Assembly (NCBI GenBank): GCA_963844035.1
Contig: CAWJMT010000037.1
Location: 96,001-160,000 of the forward strand
From: an uncultured Gemmatimonadales bacterium
GTDB lineage: Bacteria > Gemmatimonadota > Gemmatimonadetes > Gemmatimonadales > GWC2-71-9
DNA: 64,000 bases
Direction of reading: 5' to 3'
The stretch's first letter is position 1, and every line of letters begins with the position of its first letter. The notes below the pieces were generated by a model, which was not told where the DNA came from, did no database searches, and saw nothing but the letters and a program-made list of their open reading frames with translations. Below are positions 40,803 through 61,741 of the stretch, one piece after another. A program made the position numbers and the translations under genes.

Positions 40803-41838
40803 GGCTGGCGCACGCGCCTGGGCGGTCGCGCTGGCGCTTTGGGTAGTGGGATGCAGTCGCGATCATCGGACCCCGCTGGTCATCTATTCACCGCACGGCC
40901 GCGACCTCCTCACTCTCTTTCAGCAACGCTTCGAGCAGCTGCATCCCGATGTGGTCGTGCACTGGCTCGATATGGGATCGCAGGAGGTGTACGACCGGCT
41001 GCGGTCCGAGCGGCCCAATCCGCAGGCTGATGTCTGGTTCGGCGGGCCGGGGACGATTTTCGCGCGCGGCGCGCGCGATTCGCTGCTCGAACCGTTCCGT
41101 CCGGGGTGGGCGGAGGCGATCGCGCCGCACGGGCGCGGCCCCGGGGATCTCTACTTCGCCGCGTACCTCACTCCCGCAGTCATTCTCTACGCGACCGATG
41201 CCCTGACGCCCGATCAGGCGCCCCATGACTGGGATGACCTGCTCGATCCGCGATGGAAGGGGAAGGTTCTGATTCGCGATCCCCTCGCCAGCGGGACGAT
41301 GCGCGCGGTGTGGGGCATGATCATCGAACGGGGCCTGCGGATCAGGAACGATACGGCTGCCGGGTTCGGGTGGCTGCGGCGGCTCGACGGACAGACCAAG
41401 GAGTACGTGCTCAACGGCACCCTCCTCAATCAAAAGCTCGTGCGACAAGAGGGCCTCGTCACCATCTGGGATTTGCCGGACGTCCTGTTGAGCCGGCGCG
41501 ACGGCATGCCCATCGGCTACGTGTTCCCGGCGAGCGGGACGCCCGTGATCGAGGATGCCATCGGCGTGGTGCGGGCGGCGCCGCACGCCGCGATGGCGCG
41601 TGCATTCGTGGAATGGGTCGGCACGCCGGAGGCGCAGCTGTTGGCGGCGCGGGACGTGTTCCGGTTGCCCGCACGGCAGGATCTCCCCGAAGACTCGCTT
41701 CCCGAGTGGGCGCGCGGTGTGCGCCGGGAGATGCATGTGGCCGACGTGGATTGGGATGTGCTGGCGGCGCAGGGGGACGAGTGGATGCGGTGGTGGGACG
41801 AGCACGTCCGGGGGCAGGGGAGGGGGAAGGGGAAGTGA
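40792..41838 (+). CDS. ABC transporter substrate-binding lipoprotein (Fe3+/AfuA/thiamine-type family)
   Basis: Lipobox VVG-C; 'ERPNPQADVWFGG', 'PHDWDDLLDPRWKG', 'DPLASGT'. Confidence 0.85.
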   Translation: MGRRAGARAWAVALALWVVGCSRDHRTPLVIYSPHGRDLLTLFQQRFEQLHPDVVVHWLDMGSQEVYDRLRSERPNPQADVWFGGPGTIFARGARDSLLEPFRPGWAEAIAPHGRGPGDLYFAAYLTPAVILYATDALTPDQAPHDWDDLLDPRWKGKVLIRDPLASGTMRAVWGMIIERGLRIRNDTAAGFGWLRRLDGQTKEYVLNGTLLNQKLVRQEGLVTIWDLPDVLLSRRDGMPIGYVFPASGTPVIEDAIGVVRAAPHAAMARAFVEWVGTPEAQLLAARDVFRLPARQDLPEDSLPEWARGVRREMHVADVDWDVLAAQGDEWMRWWDEHVRGQGRGKGK

Positions 41839-42818
41839 CCGGCTTCGTGCAGGTTGAGGGCCTGACGAAGCGGTTTGAGGCAACGCCCGCGGTGGATGGT
41901 GTTTCGCTGAGTGTCGCCCGCGGCGAAACGGTGGCGCTCCTCGGGCCGAGCGGCAGCGGCAAGACGACGGTGCTGCGCCTGCTCGCCGGGTTCGAGACGC
42001 CCGACGCGGGACGCATCGCGGTCGAGGGTGAGGACGTCACGCGGATCGAGCCCGCGCGCCGGCGGTTCGGCATGGTGTTCCAGCACTACGCGTTGTTTCC
42101 GCACCTCGATGTGGGCGAAAATGTGGCGTTCGGACTCGGCGGCATCGCGCGCGGGAGCCGCGACAGCAAGGTCGCGGCCGCGCTGGAGCTCGTGGACCTC
42201 GCCGGCTTCGAGCGGCGCAAAGTGCAGGAGCTGTCCGGGGGGCAGCAGCAGCGGGTGGCGCTCGCGCGCGCGCTGGCGCCGGAGCCGCGGGTGCTGCTGC
42301 TCGACGAGCCGCTGTCGAACCTCGACCCCTCGCTGCGCGAGCGGACCCGCCGCGAGCTGCGCCAGCTCATCACGCGGCTTGGCATCACGACGTTGTTTGT
42401 CACGCACGAGCAGGAAGAAGCGTTTGAGCTGGGTGACCGGATCGCCGTGTTGCGGCGGGGCCGTCTCGAGCAGGTCGGCACCGCGGAGGAGCTGTACGAG
42501 CGTCCGGCGACACTGTTCGTCGCGGAGTTCGTGGGGCGGGCCAACGTGCTTCGGGACGCCGCCGCCCGCGCCTTCGGCGGGCGCGAGGGCGCGGTCACGG
42601 TGATTCGCCCGGAGCGGCTGCGGTTTGCGGGCGCCGGTGTCCCCGGTACCGTGCGCGAGCGCCGCTACACCGGCGCGGCCGCGTTCTTCCTCGTTGAGGG
42701 AGAGCACGGGGCGCGATTCGAGATCCTCGCCGCGCCCGACGCGGCGCAGGTCGGGGACCGGGTGTTTGTCGAGGCCACCCGGGTGCTGTCCTTTCCCGAC
42801 GCCGGAGCCGGCCGGTGA
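41835..42818 (+). CDS. ABC transporter ATP-binding protein (FbpC/PotA-like)
   Basis: 'GPSGSGKTT', 'VFQHYALFPHL', 'LSGGQQQRVALARAL', 'LLLDEPLSNLD'. Confidence 0.93.
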   Translation: MTGFVQVEGLTKRFEATPAVDGVSLSVARGETVALLGPSGSGKTTVLRLLAGFETPDAGRIAVEGEDVTRIEPARRRFGMVFQHYALFPHLDVGENVAFGLGGIARGSRDSKVAAALELVDLAGFERRKVQELSGGQQQRVALARALAPEPRVLLLDEPLSNLDPSLRERTRRELRQLITRLGITTLFVTHEQEEAFELGDRIAVLRRGRLEQVGTAEELYERPATLFVAEFVGRANVLRDAAARAFGGREGAVTVIRPERLRFAGAGVPGTVRERRYTGAAAFFLVEGEHGARFEILAAPDAAQVGDRVFVEATRVLSFPDAGAGR

Positions 42819-44441
42819 GGCGCCGTGGCTGGGATGCCGGCGGGGTAGCCCTCACCCTGCTGCTCGTGTGGCTGGTCGCATACCCGATCGCCATCGTCGC
42901 GGGAGAAGCCGCCAACGCCCCGGCGGTGCGCGACTTCGTCACCCGCCCCGGTGAATGGCGCGCGTTGTGGGCAAGTCTCTGGATCTCGGTGGCGAGTGTC
43001 GTCCTCGCCGCCGCGGCCGGGGTGCCGCTCGCGTTTCTGTTCGAAGGATTCGAGTTCCCGGGGCGGCGCGTGCTTGGCGCCCTGGTGGCGCTGCCGGCGG
43101 TCCTGCCGCCGCTGGTGGGTGTGATCGCGTTTCTGTTTCTCTACGGCGAGTCGGGGTTCGCGGCGCGGGCCGTACAGGGACTGCTGGGTCTCACCACGCG
43201 CTCCCTGGCACCTCGAGGGCGCCGGCGCGATCCTGCTCGTCCACGCGTACTCCATGTACGCCTACTTCTACCTGCTCACCCGGGCGGGTCTCGCCAAACT
43301 CGATGCGTCGATGCACGAAGCGGCTCAGGCGCTGGGCGCGGGTCGCTGGTCGATCTTGCGGCGCGTGACACTGCCCCTGCTCCGGCCCTCGCTGGCGGGA
43401 GCGGCGCTGCTCACGTTCATGACGGCGCTCGGCTCCTTCAGTGCGCCGTACGTGTTCGGGGGCGGGTTCCGCGTGATGCCCACGCAGATCGTCGCGTCGC
43501 GACTGAATGGAAACGGAGCGCTCGCGATGGTGGAGACCGTGGCGCTGGCGCTGGTGGCGCTCGCGGTGCTGTTGCTGCTCCGCCGGACCGAAGGGGACGA
43601 CGTGCTGGTCGCGCTGGGGAAGGGGACAGCACCCAGGCGGCGCCGGTTGCGCACCGCCGGCGCACGCGCGCTCGCGGCCGCCGCCGGATGGGCGCTGGCG
43701 CTGGTGCTGCTGCTTCCTCATCTGACGTTGCTGCTCGTCTCACTCGTTCCCTACGCCACCTGGACGACGCAGGCCCTGCCGCCGGTCTTGAGCCTCGTGA
43801 ACTACCAACGGCTCCTCGGGGAGTCCGAGCGGCTGCGGCCGCTCATCAACTCGTTGTGGATGGCGGGGGCAAGCACGGCGGGCGCGCTCGTGCTGGCGCT
43901 CGCGGCGGGGTGGCTCGTGGTCCGGCGGCGCGTCGCGCTGCGCCGCGTCATTGAAGGACTCCTCGCCCTGCCGTGGGCGCTCCCCGGCACCGTGTTCGCG
44001 ATCGCGCTCGCCACCACCTTCGGTGTTTCGCGGCCGCTGGCACTTCGCGGGGTGCTCGTGGGGACGGCCGTCATCCTGCCGCTGGCGTACCTGGTGCGCA
44101 ACCTCCCGATCGCCGGGCGGGCTATCCTCGCCGGGTACCGCCAACTCGATCCCGCGCTGGAAGAGGCGGCGGCGAGCCTCGGCGCGGGTGGCTGGGCCAC
44201 GCTGCGACGCGTGACCGTGCCGCTGCTCGGGCCGGCGCTCGCGGCCGGGGCGAGCCTCGCGTTCGTCACGGCGCTCGGTGACTTCGTCACGTCGATCGTG
44301 CTGTACACGTACGACACGCGCCCCATCGCGATGGAGATTCTCTCGAGCCTGCGCCAGAACGAGCTGGGGATCGCTGCCGCATTCGGTGTCGTGTTGATGG
44401 TTGCGAGCGCCGCGGTGCTCGGGATCGGAGCGCGCCGGTGA
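42815..44441 (+). CDS. ABC transporter permease, FbpB-type with two domains (frameshift near 43200)
   Basis: Two EAA loops: 'HEAAQALGAG' and 'EEAAASLGAG'. Confidence 0.9.
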
Positions 44442-45680
44442 AGGTCAATCCCGACCTGAAGCGCCTCGTGGTGCTGATCGCGGTCTGCTTTGTGGACATG
44501 ATCGGCCTGCTGATGATCGCGCCGCTGATCACCTTCTACGCGCTGCGGCTCGGGGGAACGCCCAGCTCCGTGGGTCCGTTGTTCAGCGCGTTCGCCGTGG
44601 CGCAGCTGCTCGCATCGCCCATTTGGGGGCGGGTGTCGGACCGATATGGGCGCCGTCCCGTGCTGCTCAGCGGGCTGTTCGCGTCGGCGATCGCCTATCT
44701 GATCTTCGGGTTCGCCGGCTCGCTCTGGCTGCTGTTCGTGTGCCGCTTTGTCCAGGGGTTCGGCGGCGGGACCACCGGCGTCGCCCAGGCATACGTCGCG
44801 GACACAATGGCGCCCGGCCAGCGGGCCAAGGCTCTCGGTTGGCTGTCCGCGGCCACCAGCCTGGGGGTCAGCATCGGGGCGGTGCTGGGATCGGTGACGC
44901 ACAAGGTGTGGGGACCGCACGGGCCGGGCCTCGCCGCCGCGGCGCTGGTGCTGGTGAACATGGCCATTCGCGTGGCGCTGGCTTCCGGAGTCGAGGGTCT
45001 ACACGCCATCAAAGCCGGCGGCCGGGGGCGCGGGCCAGCCCTCCGGCTCGTTCCAGGTCGTGGTGGGCAACGTGACCCGACCACTCTGGCAGGTGATCCG
45101 CCACCCCTTCAGCCCGGTTTCGGAGGTCATCTGGGTCTACGGGTTCGGGATGCTGGCGCTGAACGCGCTGATCGCCGTCATGTCACTGTACCTCATGCAG
45201 CGCTTCAATCTGAACGCCGACAACGTCGGCCCGGTTTACTTTGTGTTCAGCGCGGTGGGGGTTGCGATGCGGATTCACCCGGTCGGTTGGATCAACGAGC
45301 GTCTGGGCGAGGTCCGCACCATGCGCCTCGGGGCTGTGCTGCTCGGGATCGGGTTGCTGCTGATGCCGTTCCCCGCGACGCTGTGGGGATTCATGGCCTG
45401 CCTGGTCCTCGCGCCGATCGGCACGGCGCTGCTGTTCCCGGCGAGCACGGCGTTGGTCAGTCACCGGACGGATCCCAACCAGTACGGTGTGCAGATGGGG
45501 GCACAGCAGACGCTCCGCGGCCTGATGGCGATCGTGGGTCCGATCGGCGCGACGGTGGCGTTCCAGCACCTGGGGCCCGGCGCGCCGTTCTTCTTGTCCG
45601 CGGGGGTGGTTGCGCTTGCCGCCCTGGTCGCGTGGCAGGTGCGCGACGATCGGGCGGCGAAAACACCGGCGCTTCCCTGA
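44438..45680 (+). CDS. MFS transporter (TetA/DHA1-like; frameshifts near 44965-45060)
   Basis: Motif A 'GRVSDRYGRRPVLL', 'AQAYVAD'; C-terminal half in ORF 45060..45680. Confidence 0.88.
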
Positions 45681-45734
45681 CGCCGCGCCTGCGAGTGGGT
45701 ACACGTTCTCGTCACATCGGATTGCGAGGTCAGG

Positions 45735-46127
45735 ATGGTTGACAAGCTCACCGTCGAGCAGATGCAGAAGATCGAAAAGATCGAAGAGTTTCAGAAGATC
45801 ATGAACCACACGCACCACCTCGTGCAGGAGCTGGCGGCGAATCGCGCCGCTCCCGCGAAGATGCTTGCGGCGATCTGCGAGGGGATCGCGCGGGACATGA
45901 AGCAGATGCGGCAACGCGCCCTCACCGCCAACATTGGGACCATTGCCGACGTCGCGGGCGCGCTGGGCGTGATGGCGGCGCGTAGCGGGGGCCTGAGCCT
46001 GAAGATCCGCGGTCTCGAGGACGGCGTGAACAGCCTGCGGATACAGCTCGAGCATGCCCTCAAGATGGCCACCACCATCGAGAAGAAGCCTCCCGAAGCG
46101 AAAAAGCCTCCGTCACAACCGTCCTAG
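45735..46127 (+). CDS. Hypothetical alpha-helical protein
   Basis: GAGG RBS, typical codon usage, amphipathic helices; no family recognised. Confidence 0.7.
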   Translation: MVDKLTVEQMQKIEKIEEFQKIMNHTHHLVQELAANRAAPAKMLAAICEGIARDMKQMRQRALTANIGTIADVAGALGVMAARSGGLSLKIRGLEDGVNSLRIQLEHALKMATTIEKKPPEAKKPPSQPS

Positions 46128-48865: not shown

Positions 48866-51800
48866 CTAGAACCGGGCTCGCCAGAATGCTGCCGCCGTCG
48901 GGAACAACTTCTCGGTGAGTGTGGCCGAGAGGGTGACGAACACCCCGTGCCCGCCGCGCACCGAGAAATCGGGATCGGTCAGGTCGCCGAAACGATACCC
49001 GGTCGCGATCTCGAGGCCGGTGACAGGCCGCAGGGCAAGGGTGGGCGACGCATCCCACCGTGTGGCACCGCTCGATCGCTCGATCAGCAACCGGCCGTCA
49101 CCGCGTACGCTCATCCAGGGGCTCAGGGTGACGTTCAGGCGGCTGCCCACGTAGTCCGCCCAGGCGACGAGGGCCTGGGGTGCCCCGTCCGGGTACACGC
49201 CCTGGGTCTCGGTGCGGCGCATCGCGTAGCGGGTGCCGACCTCGAGCTGCGGAGCCGGCGTCCAAATCATCTCGGCCGCCGCGATCGCCCGTTGCTCGAC
49301 TCCCTGGGAAACGAGCACGCCGCCGCCGATCGGGTTGCGGGCATCGGTCCACTGGAACTTCGCGAGCATGTTGAGGCGATCGCTGTGCGCCGGCCGGAAC
49401 GCGAGGCCCCACAGGCTCGACAGCTGGCGGGACAGCGGCGCGCCGGGCAACGCGTTCTGGGAGAACTGTTGCCGGGTGAGCAGGGCAAGCGACGCATCGA
49501 ACGAGACGTCGCCGACCACGGTGGCGAGACGGCTCGACTGCAACAGGCCGTCCTTGTACTCGCCGCGGGCGCTCAGCCGGTACGGCGCGTGCGCGGGCAG
49601 TAACTCCATGCCGGCACCGAACGACCAGTAGTCGTCCTCGGGCTGGAGGAAGGGCAGGGCCCGGACGGGATCGGTGACGGACGCGCTGCCGACACCCATC
49701 CGGCGCTCGAACATCACGTTGACCGCCAGGTCGGACCCCAGCTGCAGCCGGTTGCGCAGACCCACCAGCGCGGCGTTGCCCGCGCCGTTGATGCCGCCGC
49801 TCAACTGGTAGCTGCCCCACGCCTCGGTCCCGTGTCCCACGCCCGCGCGCACGCCGACGCTCGAGATCGAATACCGAGTCTGGCTGTCGGGTCGCGACAC
49901 GAACCGCTGGCCGGCCTCGAGCGCCACGGCCGGAGAAAGGTGATAGGCCCCGCCGACCCCCCAGAAATCGGGCGCGAGCTCCTGGCCGTCGAGGCTCAGG
50001 TGGCGCCGCGCTTCCGTCCAGAGCTGCAGGTGCTGGTCCTTTACCCACTTCGCCTTGAGGTCGGCCGTAGTCGCCTCGCTCAACCCGAGCCCGGTTACCA
50101 AGGCACCCGCTACCTGTTCGTTCGTGACCCCCGCGTCCAGCTGCACGTCGCGCAACAGGGGTTGCACCAGGCTCACGCGGCTGCGCTCGCGCTCGATTCC
50201 CTGCAGCGTGAACTGCTGGCTCGAGTGCTCGGCACGCAGCTCCGTCGCGCCGAGCCTCAGGCCGCTCTTGAGGTTTACTTCGGTGAGCCCGGGCTGCAGC
50301 GCAACGTTGGCCGGGTTCGTGAATTCGCGGTCGATCCGCATGTAGCCCGCCCCGATCGTCCAGGCGCCGTTGAACAGGCGATAGCCTACTCGCGCCAGCG
50401 TTCCGAAGCCGGCGGAGTCGCCGCGCTCTGCGTACGCCACTTCGGCGGACGCGTCGAGTCCACCGAAGCGCACCGCGCGCAGGTCGCCGCCCACCAACCG
50501 GTAGCCGCCCCCCGCCTGGTCGGCGCTCACCGCGGTAAGCCCGATCCGCATCGAATCCAGCCGCACGCCGCCCGCGAGCCGCCGCACGTCCAGCGCCGCC
50601 CGGCCGCCGGCGACGAACCGCTGGTCCCCGCCCGACGCCGCCTCGAAGGTGGCGACGATGAACACCGGATTGCCGCCTCCGTCCGCCGCAGGAATCGGCT
50701 GCTTGAACAGCACCACGCCGCCGCTGTAGTTGATCTCGTAGTCCACGAAGCGGGTCAGCGCCTGCGTGGCCACGGCGCGCTCGGGATTCGCGACGTCGCG
50801 CGTCTCGATGCGCAGATGCTCGGTGCCCGGCAGGATATCGGGGGCAAGCGTGTAGGGACCGGAGACGCCCGCGCCCCGGATCTGCAGCTGCCGCAGCGCC
50901 TGCGCGGTCAGGCTCCCGAAGCCGCTCCACGTCACGGCGCCGGTGCTGACGCGCGCGGCCAGACCCGTCACGGCGCGCCCGTACTGCGCGAGGGTCAGGC
51001 CGCGCGCGAAATCCGCGGTGGCGAGATCGCCGAACGCCGCCCAATCGAAGCCCCGCTCGAGCCGGGCCGAGAGCCAGGTGCCCGACGCCGTGCGGGTCTC
51101 GAGTTGACTCGCGTCCCCGAGGATCGGGTACTCCGACTCCTTCAAGGGGTCCACGCTGCGGCCGAACGCATCCTGTCCGTCGCGCAGCCGTCGAGAGTCG
51201 AGGCCGAGCGTGAGCGACGTCCGCGCGTCGAGCTGCCCGCGCGCGGTGATCGCCCCGTAGGCGTCGGGGCTCGCGCCCACCCCCACGAGCCCCGAGCCGG
51301 TCAGCGTGAGGGGCCGCACGGCGGGGAGGATCTCGAGCGGCAGGGCGATCGTGGCGTCGCCCGACTTGAGTTCGAGCTCCCCGTGCCTGACTTCGCGGCC
51401 GGGCCGCAGGCTGACCATCAGCCAGCCGGAAGAGTCGGACAAGACTTGCGTCCCGACCGAGGACGGGTCCGCATCTCGCCCCATCGGCTCTGCGCCGCCG
51501 GCGCTCACCGTCACGTACGCCGGCTGCACCACCGGCACCCCCCAGGCGTCGAGCACACGCACCTTCGTGCTCGCGACCGTGCGCCCGTCCGCCTGCAGCG
51601 TGAGCGGACCCGCGCTCGCCGCGAATTGGACCGGGAGACCGGTCACGTGGACGGCCACGCTGTCCCAGCGCTCGCCGCCCCAGGAGTTCTTCGCGCGCAC
51701 GCGCAGCAGATGCGGGCCCCGCGCGAGCGGCACCGCGACGAAGTCGTACACGCCGTCGACGCGGACCTGAGCCGAATCGACCGCTGTGGCGCCGTCGTAC

Positions 51801-54800
51801 AGCACCACGGGCGTGCCGGGCTCGCCCTTCACCCCCACGTACACGCGGTCGCTCGCCAGCACCGTCCCGTCGTGCGGGGCGAAGATGTCGATACCCGCGC
51901 CCAGCACGATCCCCGCCTGCTGTCCGCCCTTGGTCGCGACCCGGGTGCGTGCCAGCGGTACCGTCACAGGTTCCCGCGCCGGGCCGTCGCCTGTGGACGC
52001 CGCTCCCGTGGCGCGCCCCGCGCTGTCCGCCGTCGACGCCACTACCCCCGGCCGTCCGGCGGGGAGCGGCTCGCGCGACACTTCCGCCATCTGGCCGGAC
52101 GGCGTGACAAAGTCCGGAGCGATCTGGCGAACCAGCGCAGTCATCCACGACGATGGCACATCGGGGTCCCGGGCTTCGGTCAGCGGGGACGCGCAGCGGC
52201 AAACGGCTCTTGCCGACGCGGAGCGTCGCGGTCGCGGAATCGCTGCCGATGGACGACCACGCGAATATCCGGATCTCACTCCGGGGCCGGCCCACGGGCA
52301 ATGGAATCGCCGTGTTGCCGAGCCACGCGTAGCTGGTGAACTGGGTGTCGCCCACGAACACCAACGCGGAGTCGGCGAGCGGAGAGAACTCCACCATCCC
52401 GTCGAGCGGCATGGGGGCATCTTTCCTCAGCATCACTTCGTAGCGCATCTGCGGCCAAGCCAGCCCACCAACGGACGAACGCGATCTGTGTATCCGGACC
52501 GCCGCGAACTTCATGCTCACCACTTTTGACAGATCCGCCACTGTCAGATCCGCCGCTGGCAGGTCCACCGCCGGCAGGTCCACCGCAGGCGCCGCGACGA
52601 TGGCCGGGGCCTGGCGCAGGCCGCCCACCACCGGCGCTCCGCTCGGGGGGATGCCGAGGTCCACCGGGGGCGTCGTCCCGAGGGTGGCCGGCGCCTGGCG
52701 CAGGCTCTCCGCCACCGGCGCTTCGTTCGGGGCGACGCGGAAATCCACCCGGGGCGTCGTCCATCCGCTGGCCTCGACCGCCTGAATGTCGTCGCTCAAC
52801 ACCCGATAGCCCGGGGGCAGCGTCCGGGGGTCGAGGCGGAGCGCATGGCGACCGGGCCGCAGGTTCGCGAACGAGAACTTGCCGGTCGAGTCGGTGGTGG
52901 CAACCTGGCCGTCCTCGGTCCAGATGTCGATGCCCGCGAGGCCGCTGTCGCCCGCCTGTTGAGTGCCGCGGCCGGCGCGGTCGATCCACACCTTCCCGAT
53001 CGCCGCCCGCGTCTCCATCGGCCAGGCGCGGCGCACCTGCACCCATGCGACCGCTTGGGGCGAGACGACCTGGGCCGCTGCGGCCTGTGCGCCCGCGATC
53101 GCGCGCATCTCGGCCACCAGCCCCGGGGCCGACGCCAGCGCGACGCCGACGTGGAAGCTGCGCGTGGCGCCGGGCGCGAGTGGCGCCACGCTCACGAGCA
53201 CCAGCTGGCTCCCCGCCACCAGGACGGAGTCCGCGCCGAGGGCGGTGCCCTTGGCATAGCTCCCGCCCGCGGGCAGCGTATTCGTTATGCGGATGTCGTC
53301 GATCGGAACGATTCCGGAATTCCGCACAACGAGCGTGTAGGGGATGACCTCGCCCACGCCGACCTCGAGGGCATCGGCGGTGAGATCGAGCGCGACGGCG
53401 GTGCTGGGGGGCCCGATCAGAGCCAACAGCGCCGCCCTGACGGACAGCGCCGAGGCGTTCGTCGCAGCGAGGGCCCCCACGTTGCGGGCCCACACCGTGT
53501 CGCGCACGGCGGCGTTCACCTGAAGCACGACGTCAACAACCCCGCTGTCGCCGGGTGCGAGCGTACCCAGCGCCCAGCTGAGCACCGACCCGGAGGCAGC
53601 CGCCGGGGGCACCGCACTCACGTAGTCGAGGCCGGCCGGCAGCGTGTCGGTCAGGACCGTGTTGGACACGGCCGCGCCGGTCGGCGCGTTGCCATAGTGC
53701 AGCACGTAGTGCACCTGCTGCCCCGCCAGGGCCTGGGTCGCACCGACGAGCTGTTTCGAAAGCGTCAGGAGCGGCACCAGGACGCTGGTCTGGACGGCGT
53801 TGGTGTACGTCGTGTCGGTTATGCCGCCCGACGCGTAGACCGTGTGACCGCGGTTCGTCACGGTGCGCGCGGGACCCGGGTCCACCGCCACCTGGAACGT
53901 CACCGCGCCCAGGGCCCCAGCGGCCACGCCGCCCAGGTCCACGACCACGACGCCCGAGCCCGCGGGAACGATCGCGCCGGCGTCGTCGCCCGTGGCGTCG
54001 GTGAGGGGGGCGCCGTTCCACCGGAGGGTGCCGGGCACGTAGGTCGTGCCTGCTGGGATCGTATCGGCGAGCTGGCCGCTCGTGGTCGTCCCGCTGCCCG
54101 ACGCGGCGTAGGCAATCGTGTAGCTCAGCACATCACCCGCCACCGCGGTGGCCCGGTCCACTTGCTTGGTGAGGGCCAGGGTGACCGGCGTGACGGGCAC
54201 GTCCAGCCGGTCCCGCACCGTGTCACTCACGGCGGGATTGAACCAGCTCATCGCGCTCACCGCAACGGTGTCGGTCGCGCCCAGCACCCCGGCGGCGCCG
54301 GGGATCGCGACCTGCGCCAGCAGATACGCGATGCCGGCATACCCCAGCGCGACCGGCCCGGCAAGCGCCGGGTCGGCGGGGTCGAGCAGGCCGTCGGCGT
54401 TCACGTCGCGATACAGCGTCACGGGCCATCCGTGACTCGACACGCCGGCGACGGTGAACGAATCCGGACCGTTCCCGACGTTCGTGAGAGTGTGCGCGAA
54501 CAGGACCGCGGTGCCGGCGGCCCCACTCGAGACTCGTGGCGGCTCGACGTCCGCCCCCGCGACTTGGCCGACGAGGACGTCGGCCGTGTCGGAATAGGAG
54601 ACGAACCCCGTCCCGCTCGGGGTATCGAACGTGGCGACCGCCCAGGCACGGATCTGCGTTCCCGCGGGGGTGCCCTGAGCGGCGACAGGCGATTACGACA
54701 AACAACCTGAAAGCACAGAGGAGGGCGGCCGTCCGGCCCGCGACCGCTAAGCCGCGCCGGGCGAACCGCCCCCTCTGCACTCCGCAGGTGCCGAACTGCA

Positions 54801-54801
54801 T
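48866..54801 (-). CDS. Very large (about 1975 aa) outer-membrane protein: N-terminal donor-like hairpin, Ig/DUF11 repeats, SdrD-B-like domain, C-terminal beta-barrel (frameshifts near 54695 and 52185)
   Basis: Mature start 'QGTPAGTQIRAWAVATF'; three DUF11 repeats; 'IGKVWIDR...GLAGIDIWTEDG...TDSTGKFSF'; 'YPILGDAS', 'DYEINY', amphipathic strands, terminal Phe 'FWRARF'. Confidence 0.8.
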
Positions 54802-54816
54802 CGAGACGCTCGGCCC

Positions 54817-56042
54817 CTAGTTGATGCTGACGCGGAGTTCGAACGTGGCGCTACCGGCCGCGGCCAGGACACCACCGGTGCCCGTGTAGTCCGCCGTCAC
54901 GTTCTGCCCGACCACCCCAACACTCCAGCCGGTGGACGAGCTGGTGGATACGTACGTCACCTGCGCCGGCAACGCATCGGTCACCTGCACGCTCGAAGCG
55001 GAGGTGGAGCCGCCGTTGGTCACTGTGATCCGGTACCGGATGACCTGCCCGGGGACCACCGTGCCCGAAACCGGCGTGACCCCGTCATCGAGGTACGCGG
55101 CCTTGGCGAGCGTGAGGTTCGGCTTGATGACCGTCAGGTCCATGAAGCCCTGATTGGTCGTCGCGGGCTGTCCGACCGACGCGGCCGAGCAGGTTCAACG
55201 TGTCCGTCGATCCGCCGGCCACGTTCGCCACGTTGTAGATGACCGCGACCGCCTGCGACGCGCCGGCTGCCAGCGTGAAGCGCGCACTGTCACCGGCAAC
55301 GCCGTTCACCGACACGATGGTGATCACCGCGGACCCCGGGCTCGACCCCAGCAGATCGAAGTCGTCGCTCCCGTTGCCGTTGTTCTGCGCGGTGAAGCGT
55401 GAACGAATAGTTGTTGCCCGGGAGCCTCTGGACGTTCTGGCCCCCGTCCGGCGTGACTGCGACTGCGTGCGTCTGCGACGGGGTGATACTGCTCGCGGCG
55501 TTGCCCGACGTGGCCGGCGTGCGCCGTGACGTGGCCGTCAGGGTGTAGACGGTGTTCACGCCGCCCTTATTGCTCGCCACGTCATAGACAACCTTGACCG
55601 TGATCGAGCCGCCTTGCGCGATTGACGCACCCGCGAGCGCCGCGTTCAGCGCCGCGAGGCTGGCGTACGTGGTGCCGCTGTAGCGGTACCCCGTCACCGA
55701 AATCACGCCGGCGACGGAGATGTTCTGGGAGATCGTGACGCTGTCGTTGCCGTTGCCCGCGTTTGCCACCGTGAAGTCCAGCGTGTCGGCGGTGCTCGGC
55801 GACGCGGGGGTCGGGCTGGGTGTGTTAGCGGTCACCGCGACGCCGGCCGTGAAGCCGACCGTCACCGAAACCGATCCCGTGACCGGGGTGTAGGCGTTGT
55901 TGTTGGCGTCGGTATAGGTCGCGGTCGCCGTGTTCGTGATGACCGTGCCCTCCGGCGTCTGCGCCACGACTCGCGCGGTGACGGCGATGAGTGCCACCAC
56001 AGCGACGGCGAGGCTTTGGGTCCAGCGCAAGTACTTGAACAT
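54817..56042 (-). CDS. Secreted DUF11 protein, putative major fimbrial subunit (frameshifts near 55400 and 55180)
   Basis: Sec signal, then 'QTPEGTVITNTATATY', two Ig-like domains ('NAGNGND', 'NNGNGSD'), C-terminal DUF11 'LTLAK...PGQVIRYRITVTN...VTDALP...FELRVSIN*'; AAGGAG RBS. Confidence 0.8.
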
Positions 56043-56083
56043 CTGTCATCTCTCCTTGAGGTTGATTTCCGTTACCCGGACGC

Positions 56084-56590
56084 CTACTTCGCCTCGCCGG
56101 GTCCTGCATTCAGTTGCGCGCGAAACTCCGCGGTCACCTGTGCTCCCGGCGCCACGGACTCGAGTACCGTCCAGCGCACGTGCGTGTACAGCTCGCGCGG
56201 CGCCGGCTTCGTCACCTTGTGACCCTTCTCTTCCGCTTCGATGGTCGGCTCCGCGCTGTACGTCTTGCCGCCGTCGATCGAGAACGCGATGCGGGTCGGC
56301 TGGCGCGCGGCTGCCGAGCCAAGCACGTAGACCAGGCCCTGCGGGATCGGATCTTCGAACTGCACGTTCTTGACGGGCCCCTGCGTGAGGTTCGTGAAGA
56401 CGAGGGTGTAGCGGATCTCGTCTCCGGGGCGGGCGAGCGTCGAGTTTTTCCGCCCGCTCGCGGCTGCAGCAGTCACGTTGTGCGCCGTGATCACCAGCGC
56501 CTTGGGGCTCTGCGCCTGCGCGACAGCGACAACGGGCCAGGCCAGCACGGCGGCCAGGGTCGCAACGATCAGCATTCGCATCGTTCTCAT
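56084..56590 (-). CDS. Small secreted single-DUF11 protein (putative chaperone or minor subunit)
   Basis: Signal peptide ending AQA; 'ARPGDEIRYTLVFTN', 'EDPIPQGLVYVLGSA', 'FSIDGGKTY', 'YTHVRW'; AAGGAG RBS. Confidence 0.8.
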   Translation of the reverse strand: MRTMRMLIVATLAAVLAWPVVAVAQAQSPKALVITAHNVTAAAASGRKNSTLARPGDEIRYTLVFTNLTQGPVKNVQFEDPIPQGLVYVLGSAAARQPTRIAFSIDGGKTYSAEPTIEAEEKGHKVTKPAPRELYTHVRWTVLESVAPGAQVTAEFRAQLNAGPGEAK

Positions 56591-56671
56591 GTTCGGGCTC
56601 TCCTTTACCTGCGTGTGTATCGAGCGTGTTAGGGTCATCAGTCCTCTGTTGTGCCAGGCGTGCCGCGCCGC

Positions 56672-56812
56672 TCATCCCCTTCGGGTTGGGCGGCGGCTCC
56701 CTCGCCACAGCGGAACACCGCACTCGCATCGAGGGCAAACGACCAACTCACCCAGGACCTGCGGGCGACCGAAGAACGTCAGTTCTGAGCAACTGGGGCA
56801 GCGTCGAACCAT
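56672..56812 (-). CDS. 46-aa zinc-ribbon microprotein
   Basis: GAGGAG RBS; MVRRCPSCSELTFFGRPQVLGELVVCPRCECGVPLWRGSRRPTRRG (two CxxC). Confidence 0.5.
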   Translation of the reverse strand: MVRRCPSCSELTFFGRPQVLGELVVCPRCECGVPLWRGSRRPTRRG

Positions 56813-56844
56813 GTGTCGCAGCACTCCTCTCGAGCACGCGGAAA

Positions 56845-56860
56845 AGCAGGTCCTGTGCCC
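56845..56860 (-). promoter_or_regulatory. Putative sigma54 (-24/-12) promoter for the DUF11 operon
   Basis: Minus strand GGGCACAGGACCTGCT = GG-N10-GC; AT-rich IHF-like tract at 56876-56903 upstream. Confidence 0.6.
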
Positions 56861-56947
56861 CACGTGCCAAACTGCATAAACTAGTTATGTGACAATGAGT
56901 TACGTTACTTCTTGCTGGCGGGGTGGTGCTGCGGAACTGCTGGCGAT

Positions 56948-56975
56948 GTTACCCTGCGGTAACGCGGTTGGTAAC
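56948..56975. promoter_or_regulatory. Putative enhancer (UAS) copy 1
   Basis: GTTACC-ctgc-GGTAAC-gcggtt-GGTAAC. Confidence 0.65.
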
Positions 56976-56996
56976 GCCTGGTCTGTGGTTCTGGGC

Positions 56997-59900
56997 TTAC
57001 CTGATTCGCGCGGTGAAGCCGATGGAGCCGGTGTTGTTGGGCGCGGTTTGGCTCAAGCTGCCGGTGAATGTCCAACGGATATTGGTGACCTGTCGATCAT
57101 AGCCCGCTGGCGCACCCCCGGCACCGCTGGTGGGGATGTACGTCCACGTGGTCCCTCCGTTACTCGAGTACGCCACGACCACCGTGAGACCGGTCGAGCC
57201 GAGATTGCTCGTGACAGACCCCACCTTGAAGTCGGAGTTGGTCGATACGGAATCGATGAGGACCAGCGCCTCCGCGGCGCTGCCGCCCGAGTTGGTGAAC
57301 GTCAGCGTGTAGGTGAGATCGGTGCCTGCCGGCACGGTGCCCGATGGGACGACGCTGTGTGCCAGCCCCATGGTCGGTGCCGTGCGGGTCAAGACCACGT
57401 CGTTGCCGGTGCCACCGACGTAGCTGATCTTGAAGGTCAGGTTGCTCAGTGTGACGGTGGATCCTTCCGGCAGTCCGGCGAAAGTCCCCGTTATCGCATC
57501 GCCCCCGTCGTTGGTGATGACGGTGAAGGTCATGCCATCGGTGGTCGCAAAGCCCACCGTGCCGCTCAAGGCGGCGCCACTCACGTTCACGGTCCCCGTC
57601 ACGTTGAGTCGATCGTAGCCGCTGCCCACGGTGGTGCCGTTGAGCTCGACCACGAAACCGGGTGCGCCGCTGCTCCAATTCACGTTACCGCTGTTGAGAA
57701 TGCCCGGGCCCGATCCGGGCGAAACTGTTCCGCCCAGGGCGGTGGAGGTGATCGCCCCTACCGTGCCCGTACCACCCAGCGTGCCCCCGTTCAGGCTCAC
57801 GGCGCTCGAGCCTTGGGAGCCGTTTACGAGCAGCGTCCCCGCACTGACGGTCGTCGTCCCGGTGTAGGTGTTGGCGGCGCTCAGCGTGAGCGTGCCCGCC
57901 CCATCCTTGGTCAGGGTCCCGGTGGTGGTGCCGATCACGCCGCTCACCGTGGTGTTGCCAGCGCCCCCAACCGTCAGGCCGACGCCCGCGCCGCTGATCG
58001 TGTTGGAGACGGTGAGTGTGCCCGCGTCGGAGTTGATGCGCGCCGCGCTCCCCAACGTGATCGCGCCGGACCAGGTGTTGTTGTTGGCCAGGTTGCGCAG
58101 GGCGCCGCCGCCGGCAATCCCGGTCCCGTTCAGGGTGATCGGCTCCGCGATCAGCAGCCCGCTGCCATCCACCTGGAGCGCCGCCCCGGCGGTTACGGTC
58201 GTCGCTCCGGCGGTCGTCCCCAGGGCCGTGTTGTTCTGAGCGTCGAGCACGCCCGCACTCACCGTCGTCACACCGGTGTAGGTGTTGGCGCCGGAGAGCG
58301 TCAAAGTGCCGGTCCCCGCTTTGGTCAGCGTCACGGTCCCGCTGCCGTTCTGGAGGATCCCGGAGAACAACGTGCTCGTGTTGTTGCCCCCCGCCGTGAG
58401 CGTTACCGCGCCCGCCACACCGCTCGTCACCGTGCCGGCGCCGGCGAGTGAGCCGATCGCGTCGCTGAACCCGTTGAGATCGAACGTGGCTGCTCCGGCC
58501 ACGGTCACGGCGCTGCTCGCGCCCACCGCGTTGGCGATGCCCAGCCTCAGGGCGCCCGCACTGATGGTGGTCGCCCCCGTGTAGGTGTTGGCGGCGCTCA
58601 ACGTGAGCGTGCCTGTCCCATCCTTGGTCAGAGTCCCGGTGGTGGTGCCGATCACGCCGCTCACCGTGGTGTTGCCTGCCCCCCCTACGGTTAACCCCAT
58701 CGTGGCGCCGCCGATGGTGTTGGACAGCGTGAGCGTGCCCGCATCGGAGTTGATGCGCGCCGCACTCCCCAACGTGATCGCGCCCGACCAGGTGTTGTTA
58801 TTGGCCAGGTTGCGCAGGGCACCGCCGCTCGCAATCCCGGTCCCATTGAGGGTGACCGGCTCCGCGATCAACAGCCCGGTGCCATCCACTTGCAGCGCCG
58901 CCCCGCTCGCCACCGTCGTGGCTCCCGCAACTGTTCCCAGGGCCGTGTTGGTCCGGGCGTCGAGCACCCCCGCGCTTACCGTCGTCACCCCGGTGTAGGT
59001 ATTGGCGGCGCTCAGCGTGAGCGTGCCTGCGCCCGCTTTGGTGAGGCCGCCCGCTCCGCTCGTGACACCGCTGAGGGTGAGCGTGCTTGCGGCATCAGTG
59101 ACCGTGATGGTGCGGGTTGCGGCGAAGGCCATCGCCAGGCTGATCGTATTGGATCCAGCGACACTGCCGTCCGTCAGGTTGCCCGCACCAAGCACGATGG
59201 AATTGCCGGCCAGCGTATAGCCCGTGCCGGTGATGGTGATCGAATTGAAGGTCGTCGCGGCCGCCAGACCGTTTGAATTGGAAAGATTCGCCGCGCCGCC
59301 CGGGAAGATGAGATCCTCTCCTCCCACGAGTGGCGTGCCACCCAGGCCCGACCAGTTGCCCCCGTTGACCCAGAGATTGCTCACCGCGCCGGTCCAGGTG
59401 GCGGTCGTGGCTCGAGCGAGAGCCAGGGTCTGCCCGACTCCCACATCGGCGTCGTTCGAGGCGGTCGCCGTCTTCACTCCGGTCGCTCCAGCAACCGGTT
59501 GCACGACGTAGTTCATTTCGAGCGTGATCCCGACGGCATTCGGTACGGCATCCGAAGAGACATCGACCGCCTCCGTCATCCCGCCGGGCGGGGTCCAGGT
59601 TGCAGCCGAGGTGAAACTGTGGGTGGTGACGATCATGTCATAGCTCTTCGTGGTCGTCACACTGGGGGCGGCGTGGGTCAGCGCGCTGGCCGTCACCTGT
59701 CCGTTTTCGATATCGACGGGAGCAGCGGTGTTGACCCCGAAGAAGGTCACGATGCCGCCCGCCGAGCCGGTGGACGTGTTGAAAGTCCAGGTGTAGCTCG
59801 CGGGCTCGCCCGCGGCGGCGACCTTCCGATAGGTCGCCTGCGAGCTGGCGTTGGTCGCCGCCTGGTTCGTGCGGCGAATCAGGGTCCAGCCCGCGGGCGC

Positions 59901-60104
59901 GGTGATCGTCGCCGTATTGGGCCGAACGGCGATGGCGGCGATCATCACGTCGCCGGTCACGGTCCCGGCCGGCTTGTTGACGGTGAGCGAAAGCACCCCG
60001 GTCGTCGCACCCGCCTGGGCGGACGCACGAACGGCCTGAGCAAACACCGGCGCAGGCAGCAGCCAGGCGATCGCGATCACCGCGACCAGAAGCCAGTACC
60101 TCAT
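56997..60104 (-). CDS. Secreted adhesin with autotransporter-associated beta-strand repeats and C-terminal DUF11 (no autotransporter barrel)
   Basis: Signal 'MRYWLLVAVIAIAWLLPAPVFA'; repeated 'LTKxGxGTLTLSxANTYTG'; C-terminal 'PAGTDLTYTLTFTN...YSSNGGTTW...NIRWTF...IGFTARIR*'. Confidence 0.85.
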   Translation of the reverse strand: MRYWLLVAVIAIAWLLPAPVFAQAVRASAQAGATTGVLSLTVNKPAGTVTGDVMIAAIAVRPNTATITAPAGWTLIRRTNQAATNASSQATYRKVAAAGEPASYTWTFNTSTGSAGGIVTFFGVNTAAPVDIENGQVTASALTHAAPSVTTTKSYDMIVTTHSFTSAATWTPPGGMTEAVDVSSDAVPNAVGITLEMNYVVQPVAGATGVKTATASNDADVGVGQTLALARATTATWTGAVSNLWVNGGNWSGLGGTPLVGGEDLIFPGGAANLSNSNGLAAATTFNSITITGTGYTLAGNSIVLGAGNLTDGSVAGSNTISLAMAFAATRTITVTDAASTLTLSGVTSGAGGLTKAGAGTLTLSAANTYTGVTTVSAGVLDARTNTALGTVAGATTVASGAALQVDGTGLLIAEPVTLNGTGIASGGALRNLANNNTWSGAITLGSAARINSDAGTLTLSNTIGGATMGLTVGGAGNTTVSGVIGTTTGTLTKDGTGTLTLSAANTYTGATTISAGALRLGIANAVGASSAVTVAGAATFDLNGFSDAIGSLAGAGTVTSGVAGAVTLTAGGNNTSTLFSGILQNGSGTVTLTKAGTGTLTLSGANTYTGVTTVSAGVLDAQNNTALGTTAGATTVTAGAALQVDGSGLLIAEPITLNGTGIAGGGALRNLANNNTWSGAITLGSAARINSDAGTLTVSNTISGAGVGLTVGGAGNTTVSGVIGTTTGTLTKDGAGTLTLSAANTYTGTTTVSAGTLLVNGSQGSSAVSLNGGTLGGTGTVGAITSTALGGTVSPGSGPGILNSGNVNWSSGAPGFVVELNGTTVGSGYDRLNVTGTVNVSGAALSGTVGFATTDGMTFTVITNDGGDAITGTFAGLPEGSTVTLSNLTFKISYVGGTGNDVVLTRTAPTMGLAHSVVPSGTVPAGTDLTYTLTFTNSGGSAAEALVLIDSVSTNSDFKVGSVTSNLGSTGLTVVVAYSSNGGTTWTYIPTSGAGGAPAGYDRQVTNIRWTFTGSLSQTAPNNTGSIGFTARIR
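57850..59045 (-). repeat. Intragenic direct duplication (about 470-nt unit, 717-nt period) in the adhesin
   Basis: 'GGALRNLANNNTWSGAITLGSAARINSDAGTLT' occurs twice; tccttggtca at 57904 and 58621. Confidence 0.85.
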
Positions 60105-60330: not shown

Positions 60331-61732
60331 ACCCTCCCCCGCCGGCGCTGGGCGTCTCGGCGAGCAGCCCGTGCTTCTTCCGCTTCTCCCACAGGTTCTT
60401 ACGGCTGATACCCAATATCTCAGCCGCCCGCTGGATGTCGCCGCTCGTTTCTTCCAGCGTGTGGCGAATGTATTCCCGTTCCGCTTCGGCCAGGGTGAGT
60501 CCCTTGGGGAGTTGGAAAGTCGTGGCGCGTGGCGGGCCGGCCCCGCCTCCGCCCGCGCGCTGGCCGAGCGGCGGGAGGTCCGAGCGATTCAGGACCGGCC
60601 CTTTACTGAAGATCATCGCACGCTCGATCACGTTGCGCAGCTCGCGGACGTTGCCGGGCCAGCTCCAGGTCTGCAAGGCCGTGAGCGCGGCCGGATCGAT
60701 CGATTCCACCCGCTTCTTGAACTCCAGGCTGAACGTTTCGCGGAAGTGATTCGCCAGGAGGGGGATGTCGGTCTTGATGTCGCGTAAGGGCGGCAGGGTC
60801 ACGCTCGCGACGCCGACCCGGTAGTAAAGGTCGGAGCGAAACGCACCCGTCGCCACAAGCTGCTCCAGGTCCCCGTTCGTGGCCGTTACGAGCCGGAGCG
60901 CCACCTCCAGCTCCTCCGTGCCCCCGAGGCGGCGAACCCGGCGGCTTTCGAGCACGTTCAAGAGCTTGGCCTGAAGCTCGGGGCCGAGCTCCGCGATCTC
61001 GTCCAGGAACAGCGTCCCGCCGTCGGCCACCTCGATGAGTCCGCGCTTCGCCTCACGGGCGTCGGTGAACGCGCCCTTCTGGTAGCCGAACAGCTCCGCC
61101 TCGAGCAGGTTCGCGGGCAAGGCCGAGCAGTTGATCTCGACGAACCGGCCCGCCGAGTGCGGGCTGGAGTAATGAATGGCGCGCGCGACCAGGTTCTTGC
61201 CGGTGCCGCTTTCCCCGAGCAGCAGGACGGTGGGACGCGGGATGGCCGCCATCTGGCGGACGAATTCGCGGACCTGTTCGACCTTGGGATGCAGGCCGAG
61301 GATCGCGCCAACCGAGAACTGCTGCCCGCGGGCCTGTTCAAGCGAGGCCCCCGCCTCGAGGAGCGGTCGTTCCTTGAGCGCCCGCACGAGGAATGTGGTC
61401 AGCTCGTCCACGTTGACGGGCTTTGTGAGGTACTCGGTGGCGCCCGCTTTCAGCGCCTCGACAGCGGTGGCGATGTCGGCGTGCCCCGTGAGGATGAAGA
61501 TGGGGAGATGGGGGTCGACAACGCGCAGGCGGCGGGTCACTTCGACGCCGTCCAAATCCGGCATGACGAGATCGGTGATGACGGCGTCCGCCGGCTGCTC
61601 CGCATGGCGCGCCAGCAGGGCATCGGGCCGCTCGAAGACCGTGCTGCGGAACCGGCCCCCCGGCCCGAGGTTCGCGGCCACGAGCTTGGCGTGCACCACG
61701 TCGTCGTCGAGGATGTAGATTTTGTAGCTCAT
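60329..61732 (-). CDS. NtrC/AtoC-family sigma54-dependent response regulator
   Basis: Receiver domain, 'GESGTGK', 'ELFGYQKGAFTDA', 'GGTLFLDEI', 'WPGNVRELRN', Fis-type HTH. Confidence 0.95.
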   Translation of the reverse strand: MSYKIYILDDDVVHAKLVAANLGPGGRFRSTVFERPDALLARHAEQPADAVITDLVMPDLDGVEVTRRLRVVDPHLPIFILTGHADIATAVEALKAGATEYLTKPVNVDELTTFLVRALKERPLLEAGASLEQARGQQFSVGAILGLHPKVEQVREFVRQMAAIPRPTVLLLGESGTGKNLVARAIHYSSPHSAGRFVEINCSALPANLLEAELFGYQKGAFTDAREAKRGLIEVADGGTLFLDEIAELGPELQAKLLNVLESRRVRRLGGTEELEVALRLVTATNGDLEQLVATGAFRSDLYYRVGVASVTLPPLRDIKTDIPLLANHFRETFSLEFKKRVESIDPAALTALQTWSWPGNVRELRNVIERAMIFSKGPVLNRSDLPPLGQRAGGGGAGPPRATTFQLPKGLTLAEAEREYIRHTLEETSGDIQRAAEILGISRKNLWEKRKKHGLLAETPSAGGGG

Positions 61733-61741
61733 TGGCCGCAC

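Follow-up and report, generated by a model that had tools for sequence, protein, structure and literature searches.

A candidate surface-fibre operon with DUF11/CLIPPER domains divided between chains

A 64,000-nucleotide stretch from the genome of an uncultured Gemmatimonadales bacterium (assembly GCA_963844035.1; G000:C37:96001-160000, hereafter the window) carries on its minus strand a four-gene operon encoding, in order, an adhesin, a small protein, a subunit and a stalk-and-barrel protein, the last of which we also call the anchor (Table 1). The gene for an NtrC-type regulator precedes the four. The source genome comprises 3.47 Mb in 39 contigs and is 84% complete; its relatives are labelled Gemmatimonadales or Gemmatimonadota. 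The feature that unites the four proteins is the DUF11 domain. It occurs as complete repeats in the anchor and as a truncated domain – an acceptor, or socket – at the C-terminus of the other three, and the hairpin that these lack has a counterpart – a donor, or plug – at the mature N-terminus of the subunit and, less clearly, of the anchor.

Evidence for truncation came firstly from a hidden Markov model (HMM) of the repeat, built locally from 41 complete anchor repeats of relatives (122 columns, window sequences left out). In the three anchor repeats of the window the model reaches columns 121, 121 and 118; in the subunit and the adhesin it ends at column 87, one residue ahead of the stop codon, and in the small protein at column 91. 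An initial annotation of this DNA, made from its letters alone, had noted that three secreted proteins stop just short of the hairpin; the motifs that it quoted were all found in their places on the minus strand, and sockets ending at columns 87–91 of 122 bear the observation out. The end point is conserved: adhesin homologues stop at the same DUF11 column in 24/24 cases (from 28 loci), and 115 of 118 subunit homologues have their C-terminus no more than two residues from the final strand of the socket. Among family models, PF01345 scores above its cut-off in the small protein, the C-terminal domain of the subunit and the stalk-and-barrel protein, while the adhesin domain is recognized by TIGR01451 (25.7 bits against a cut-off of 24).

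Placing the donors called for a strand-specific profile, the repeat model having set both N-terminal peptides off the hairpin columns. The profile covers 13 columns of the Asn-bearing strand and was built on 400 repeats, taken from the 1524 complete ones of 74 unrelated long proteins. The mature N-terminus of the subunit scores 21.0 bits, the highest of 3470 operon windows and a value reached by none of 2000 shuffles, and the best match falls at the expected register in 115 of 118 aligned homologues. The N-terminus of the stalk-and-barrel protein ranks fourth at 9.4 bits. Two windows in the adhesin repeats score higher (11.2), and the second donor call is therefore weaker and leans on homologues. 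The missing hairpin is thus where the initial annotation had placed it, more clearly in the subunit than in the stalk-and-barrel protein. Taken together, sequence, conservation and co-occurrence strongly support a donor/acceptor polarity; the pilus that the initial annotation read from this pattern – polymerization, a chaperone and a surface location – is a further step, which we take only conditionally below.

Table 1. Features of the operon and its upstream region, in window coordinates.
Feature	Position	Strand	Details
Acceptor-only adhesin, likely tip	56997..60104	-	1035 aa; signal peptide, beta-rich head, PATR passenger repeats, C-terminal truncated DUF11
Adhesin acceptor, residues 910-1035	57000..57377	-	His916 in place of isopeptide Lys; Asp951 kept; coordinates by hand
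Small acceptor-only protein, cap/chaperone candidate	56084..56590	-	168 aa; Ala36 at Lys position
Donor-plus-acceptor subunit, likely shaft	54817..56042	-	407 aa if intact; donor hairpin, two immunoglobulin-like (Ig) domains, truncated DUF11
Subunit donor hairpin, mature residues 1-35	55857..55961	-	Asn10 codon 55932-55934; strands 7-14 and 27-34 in model
Subunit acceptor	54820..55122	-	Triad Lys 55102-55104, Asp 54976-54978; 9IFR match E 1.5e-4
Donor-only stalk-and-barrel protein	48866..54801	-	About 1900-1950 aa; two frameshifts
Donor hairpin of stalk-and-barrel protein	54570..54677	-	Ala codon 54645-54647 replaces isopeptide Asn; rank 4 of 3470
Three complete DUF11/CLIPPER repeats	53034..54191	-	First two keep Lys, Asp and Asn; third without them
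Predicted outer-membrane beta-barrel, about 38 strands (36-40)	48869..51322	-	Inserted plug-like domain about 50669-50875; C-terminal Phe
NtrC-type response regulator	60332..61741	-	Directly upstream of operon; open reading frame; receiver, AAA+ and helix-turn-helix by eye
Sigma-54-like -24/-12 site, internal promoter candidate	56846..56860	-	270 nt ahead of small gene

An intact homologue of the subunit (79–87% identical) was modelled with high confidence (predicted local distance difference test, pLDDT, 95.6; predicted template modelling score, pTM, 0.76) as a two-strand N-terminal hairpin followed by three Ig-like domains (residues 37–162, 163–279 and 280–380). Sequence and fold searches found no solved structure that matches the whole chain and no low-rmsd (root-mean-square deviation) match. 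In the PDB the subunit profile matches one chain, the CLIPPER structure 9IFR, which is the only sequence match to the subunit found there; none was found for the small protein.

The match to 9IFR bears on a feature that the initial annotation had missed. DUF11 is the CLIPPER domain, a CnaA-like fold that spans residues 708–828 of the described protein and carries an isopeptide bond between Lys715 and Asn806, with Asp748 as third residue; the Asn lies near the C-terminal end of the domain (accessible text of PMC12617251). Given the position of Asn806, the Asn falls in precisely the part that is absent from acceptors. In the subunit the triad is divided accordingly: Lys286 and Asp328 stand in the acceptor and Asn10 in the donor, far towards the N-terminus, the C-terminal domain being without the strand that would hold it. 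Lys, Asp and Asn within a single domain are confined to anchor repeats 1 and 2. All three residues are kept in 113 of 118 subunits, against 346 of 400 complete repeats. The division of the triad between chains predicts covalent joints along a shaft.

The remaining joints differ. At the Lys position the small protein has Ala, in the window and in 27/27 homologues (register set by strand pattern), and none of the 28 has a Lys anywhere in the strand. Of 24 adhesin homologues, 22 are readable at this position (the other two are cut or frameshifted), and 17 of these carry the Lys in the socket; the window has His. The donor Asn of the stalk-and-barrel protein is present in 53 of 82 readable homologues, with Ala in the window; the count is based on 84 full-length sequences of 120 listed, 65 read by pattern, 17 by eye and 2 without a readable donor. 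These counts point to selection for the lock that is strongest between shaft subunits, variable at the two end joints and missing from the small protein. In the source genome the full triad would thus occur only at shaft–shaft joints, those at tip and base being non-covalent, and the pattern fits a covalently locked shaft with a reversible cap. As a side observation, most adhesin sockets (L027-L046) have a Cys pair in an inserted segment, which is missing from the window form and its closest relatives.

The stalk-and-barrel gene, whose start we have corrected to 54801, encodes a donor, an Ig domain, three DUF11 repeats, an SdrD-B domain, a variable region, probable Ig domains and a barrel. The model of the last 818 residues (pLDDT 79.7, pTM 0.71) has 7 long strands, an insert of about 70–90 residues and 31 more strands. 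Its matches are outer-membrane barrels at the level of fold only (TM ≤0.27, best Z 13.9 at rmsd 7.4), PapC at Z 10.6 and SprA at Z 9.9 with rmsd 12.6 among them; no Pfam or NCBIfam family was found for the window barrel. A terminal Phe, as expected of a substrate of the β-barrel assembly machinery, closes the chain in 66 of 84 homologues. Also missed by the initial annotation is a peptidoglycan-binding OmpA-like domain between stalk and barrel, annotated in 22 of 120 homologues and standing directly after the SdrD-B domain in the three that were scanned. Thermus, Deinococcus and two cyanobacteria, moreover, encode stalk and barrel in two different genes. Both arrangements make it more likely that the donor of this protein starts in the periplasm, like a terminator that would end assembly rather than wait on the surface. 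In five loci (L037, L040, L044, L047 and L019) the barrel gene breaks into a frame of ~290–350 codons, which stops on the strand just ahead of the repeat 1 hairpin, and an overlapping second frame; this may be a real split that yields an extra donor-plus-acceptor adaptor protein.

A survey of the four-gene neighbourhood, of the kind that the initial annotation had proposed, shows it to be conserved. Of 301 Gemmatimonadota genomes, 23 are matched by the subunit profile, and exactly these have a barrel match; the small gene is in 22 of these plus one other (G250), and 277 genomes have none of the three. In two of the 23 the subunit-profile match is the adhesin only, near contig ends. The small gene is followed by the subunit gene in 23/23 Gemmatimonadota loci, and the barrel gene comes next in all 19 that are long enough. 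The same layout and polarity recur in seven loci from four other phyla: Thermus thermophilus HB8 (plasmid pTT27, TTH_RS10905-10925), Synechococcus NIES-970, Kovacikia, Deinococcus aetherius, Pacificitalea, a zetaproteobacterium and a Pyrinomonadaceae bacterium. The operon thus occurs in Thermus, Deinococcus, cyanobacteria, Alpha- and Zetaproteobacteria and Acidobacteria. Shaft genes there are longer (480–910 aa). In each of the eight complete ones Asn, Lys and Asp are kept, the Asn on an N-terminal donor; three, with weak scores or acceptors that the HMM missed, were read by eye; the small genes lack the Lys in 7/7, likewise by eye. The barrel HMM finds five of the six barrel genes outside the phylum, missing that of Deinococcus; the zetaproteobacterial contig ends before its own. 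Look-alikes in the Atlas from Pseudomonadota, Verrucomicrobiota, Acidobacteriota and Deinococcota serve as leads only. Two arrangements stand apart: D. aetherius has two donor-plus-acceptor subunit genes in tandem (L052:12605-15621), and at the zetaproteobacterial locus a second donor-bearing gene is cut by the contig end (L048:5288-7734).

We think it probable that the operon builds an adhesive surface fibre by plug-in-socket DUF11/CLIPPER joints, locked by Lys–Asn bonds. The explanation starts from four features that the analysis shows: complementary truncation, a divided triad, a conserved gene set and a predicted large barrel. The two-strand N-terminal plug of one subunit would complete the truncated socket at the C-terminus of the preceding protein, and a self-forming Lys–Asn bond would lock it there. 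All four proteins would enter the periplasm by signal peptides, and the small, Lys-less socket protein would cap free plugs reversibly, a mirror image of the PapD chaperone. At the barrel the adhesin would come first, with subunits joined beneath it, so that the chain would pass tip first through the roughly 38-strand pore; lastly, the plug of the barrel protein would fill the final socket, ending and tethering the fibre. What we infer is binding itself, the length of the polymer, the part played by the chaperone, passage through the pore and which way the fibre grows.

The role of the small protein admits another version of the same fibre, in which it is a minimal tip or nucleator rather than a recycled chaperone and growth perhaps proceeds outward from the base. 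This is possible because the small protein resembles the adhesin socket (25% identity over 114 aa, E 7e-7) and shares its inserted segment; in the Pam pilus, moreover, a lone truncated Ig protein has been modelled as the tip (accessible text of PMC13278184). However, the absence of the Lys from 28/28 small proteins, against its presence in 17/22 adhesin sockets, is as expected of a reversible partner, and the small gene directly precedes that of the subunit in 23/23 loci. Within the fibre model we regard a minimal tip as the less likely role.

A different function is suggested by the adhesin. Among relatives its body is exchanged while the last ~125 aa are kept, and the frame ranges from about 430 to 2780 codons across loci on a shared C-terminal socket. 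In the window the body (57377-59400, minus strand) resembles an autotransporter passenger, with PATR repeats, and the DUF11 socket stands in place of the translocator barrel. The operon could accordingly be a secretion-and-display system, with the socket as a sorting tag, the barrel as translocon and a single subunit, or a few, as spacers in a short stalk; the freely exchanged cargo, the SprA translocon among the barrel-level matches and the long shaft genes elsewhere would all suit it. Against this, plug and socket are complementary within one subunit gene whose triad is near-invariant, making unlimited self-polymerization possible; the source genome holds only one socket-bearing cargo, and the match to SprA is generic. 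We give display a small share of our belief.

The OmpA-like domain raises the thought that the chain is assembled and kept in the periplasm as a brace between outer membrane and wall, since with it the stalk would start on the periplasmic side. Yet such a scaffold would hardly need a tip protein with variable adhesin-like bodies or a very wide barrel with a plug-like insert, and an operon found in 23 of 301 genomes is too patchy for a core envelope tether; we consider it very improbable. Least credible are circularly permuted monomers that form no polymer, the plug folding into its own socket or the truncated domain being complete alone: the monomer model is confident across plug and socket and, in the small protein, a lone socket evidently occurs as a chain of its own, but donor-only and acceptor-only partners in one operon across five phyla would be left without explanation, and the strands run almost directly from domain to domain, so that ring closure over three Ig domains looks strained.

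A number of observations nonetheless tell against a self-locking fibre. The plug of the monomer model is confident (pLDDT 94) and compatible with folding back into its own socket. The base plug of the window lacks the Asn and ranks below two windows of the adhesin. The complete, one-contig genome G250 has an orphan small acceptor gene (L055:11943-12626, G250:C1) with no subunit or barrel match, which is at odds with strict coupling of the genes. Some cyanobacterial acceptors were missed by the HMM and read by eye, and the stalk protein of Kovacikia (L054) shows no scored plug in its first 90 residues. Mean-field covariation (190 rows, effective number of sequences 74) was too noisy to link plug and socket: of the 200 strongest pairs, 5 joined the donor to the third domain, with 5 and 6 joining it to the other two, and so showed no enrichment. 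Finally, no fibre, complex or mutant has been observed.

The state of the assembly has some bearing on how these genes are read. The subunit gene is interrupted by two frameshifts (at about 55397 and 55180) and the barrel gene by two more (at about 54693 and at 52155-52215). Indels had been noted in the initial annotation. The first three of these breaks, in a comparison that covered them, are each one surplus base not present in contigs of runs X1, X2 and X19 that otherwise depart from the window sequence by 1–7 letters. Read error is therefore likely for these, and the breaks in the operon as a whole are likely to be assembly errors; the subunit frame is intact (411–472 aa) in 9/9 relatives. 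Elsewhere in the window an ABC permease-like gene (42815-44441, plus strand) and an MFS-like gene (44438-45742, plus strand) also look frameshifted, which fits an indel-prone assembly. RNA runs X17 and X19 also contain short contigs nearly identical to the subunit and small genes; as contigs cannot show transcription, these were set aside.

The NtrC-type protein is the probable regulator of the operon: among 29 loci examined, 19 have a match to it (54–82% identity) next to the operon, and contig edges cut several others short. Ahead of the small gene lies a sigma-54-like -24/-12 site. The search pattern was fitted to this very site, a post hoc choice; it is present in 7 of 23 upstream regions, always at -237 to -283, against a mean of 0.17 and a maximum of 2 in shuffles. 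A site at a conserved distance, combined with a regulator of this type, suggests that expression of the cap, shaft and barrel genes can be turned on independently of the adhesin. A sigma-70 promoter and an enriched terminator were looked for and neither was found. An iron-type ABC (ATP-binding cassette) transporter cluster lies near the operon both in the window (40696-44441, plus strand) and on the Thermus plasmid (L050:6483-10388), probably by coincidence.

Should the locked fibre be real, diderm bacteria would have an unrecognized and widespread means of making adhesive fibres whose joints are covalent yet need no sortase, and the barrel would be among the largest predicted in a single chain. 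Whether it also constitutes a new pilus class among Gram-negative bacteria, with an export route to itself and members in at least five phyla – self-locking split-CLIPPER subunits, a donor-capping chaperone and a ~38-strand translocon with the terminating donor on its N-terminus – is a more tentative proposal, to which we give somewhat less than even weight. Cultured models in which the operon could be tested include T. thermophilus HB8, D. aetherius and cyanobacteria. It is, in addition, a candidate for thin surface filaments that have yet to be assigned; the subunit of cyanobacterial thin pili, for instance, is given as unknown in the accessible text of PMC4390875. The natural covalent plug and socket may be of use in protein engineering.

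How, then, does the operon compare with known systems? The initial annotation had recognized no PapC/PapD-like genes, and the search agrees: the source genome, at 84% completeness, has no match to the PapC/FimD usher (PF00577), to a PapD-like chaperone (PF00345) or to sortase (PF04203), and the subunits end on a β-strand rather than in a wall-sorting signal. Neither PF00345 nor PapD_N was found among the operon proteins; the usher family gave no hit on seven barrel regions at E values up to 5, and usher clusters of the Atlas appeared only at 0.84–0.85. SprA, reportedly a very large single-chain barrel of 36 strands that exports proteins with a C-terminal tag, is alike in its size; the match is one of generic fold, with none found by sequence or profile. 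Type V pili of Bacteroidia are said to use strand complementation among tip, stalk and anchor pilins, made as lipoprotein precursors and activated by a protease, with a C-terminal donor. Here, in contrast, the donor is N-terminal and the N-terminal piece of the subunit has no Cys.

In its proposed working the operon would be close to chaperone-usher pili (accessible text of PMC13721041); in sequence it shows a complementary pattern of N-terminal donor and truncated Ig domain. It differs in having as plug a hairpin of two strands, from a CLIPPER fold of CnaA type, on multi-domain subunits, in that an isopeptide triad would span the joint, in that the helper would be a socket and not a strand donor, and in a barrel of about 38 strands rather than 24 that itself bears the terminating donor. 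In family, the kinship is with CLIPPER/DUF11 stalks (PF01345, PDB 9IFR; GhlA of Litorilinea), which have the same Lys/Asp/Asn triad and the same OmpA-like and SdrD-B companions. Those are described as intramolecular repeats of one long chain, whereas here the domain is divided between chains; the terms ‘split’ and ‘operon’ have no hits in the main text of PMC12617251.

In the full-text literature we found no published description of the operon, most subscription papers and supplements, including those of PMC12617251, lying outside its coverage. The accessible text of PMC11821415, 10.1101/2025.08.19.671072, PMC11844507, PMC4390875, PMC12397347, PMC13278184 and PMC11494351 deals with other systems, none of them this operon. 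TLP-1, CT pili, Pam pili, tafi, F-ENA and GhlA hooks, each checked as a possible identity, proved to be different systems. Pam pili (of the candidate phyla radiation, CPR), the tafi of haloarchaea and TLP-1 fibrils are, as far as their accessible descriptions go, donor-strand fibres with a similar logic of tip and terminator; Pam differs by its PapD-like membrane chaperones and lack of a barrel, tafi by Tat export and archaeal hosts, and TLP-1 by its single-domain n+4 tube. The locked joint has its nearest likeness in BsaA/TasA of Clostridium perfringens and Bacillus, where donor-strand exchange is followed by an autocatalytic Asn–Lys bond between molecules (accessible text of PMC11580942). 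The hosts there are monoderm, the subunit is a single TasA-type domain, the triad is Asn-Glu-Lys with a catalytic Glu where the CLIPPER triad is Asn-Asp-Lys, a SipW peptidase takes part and there is no barrel; family scans gave no TasA-like hit among the operon proteins, SipW lying outside the search.

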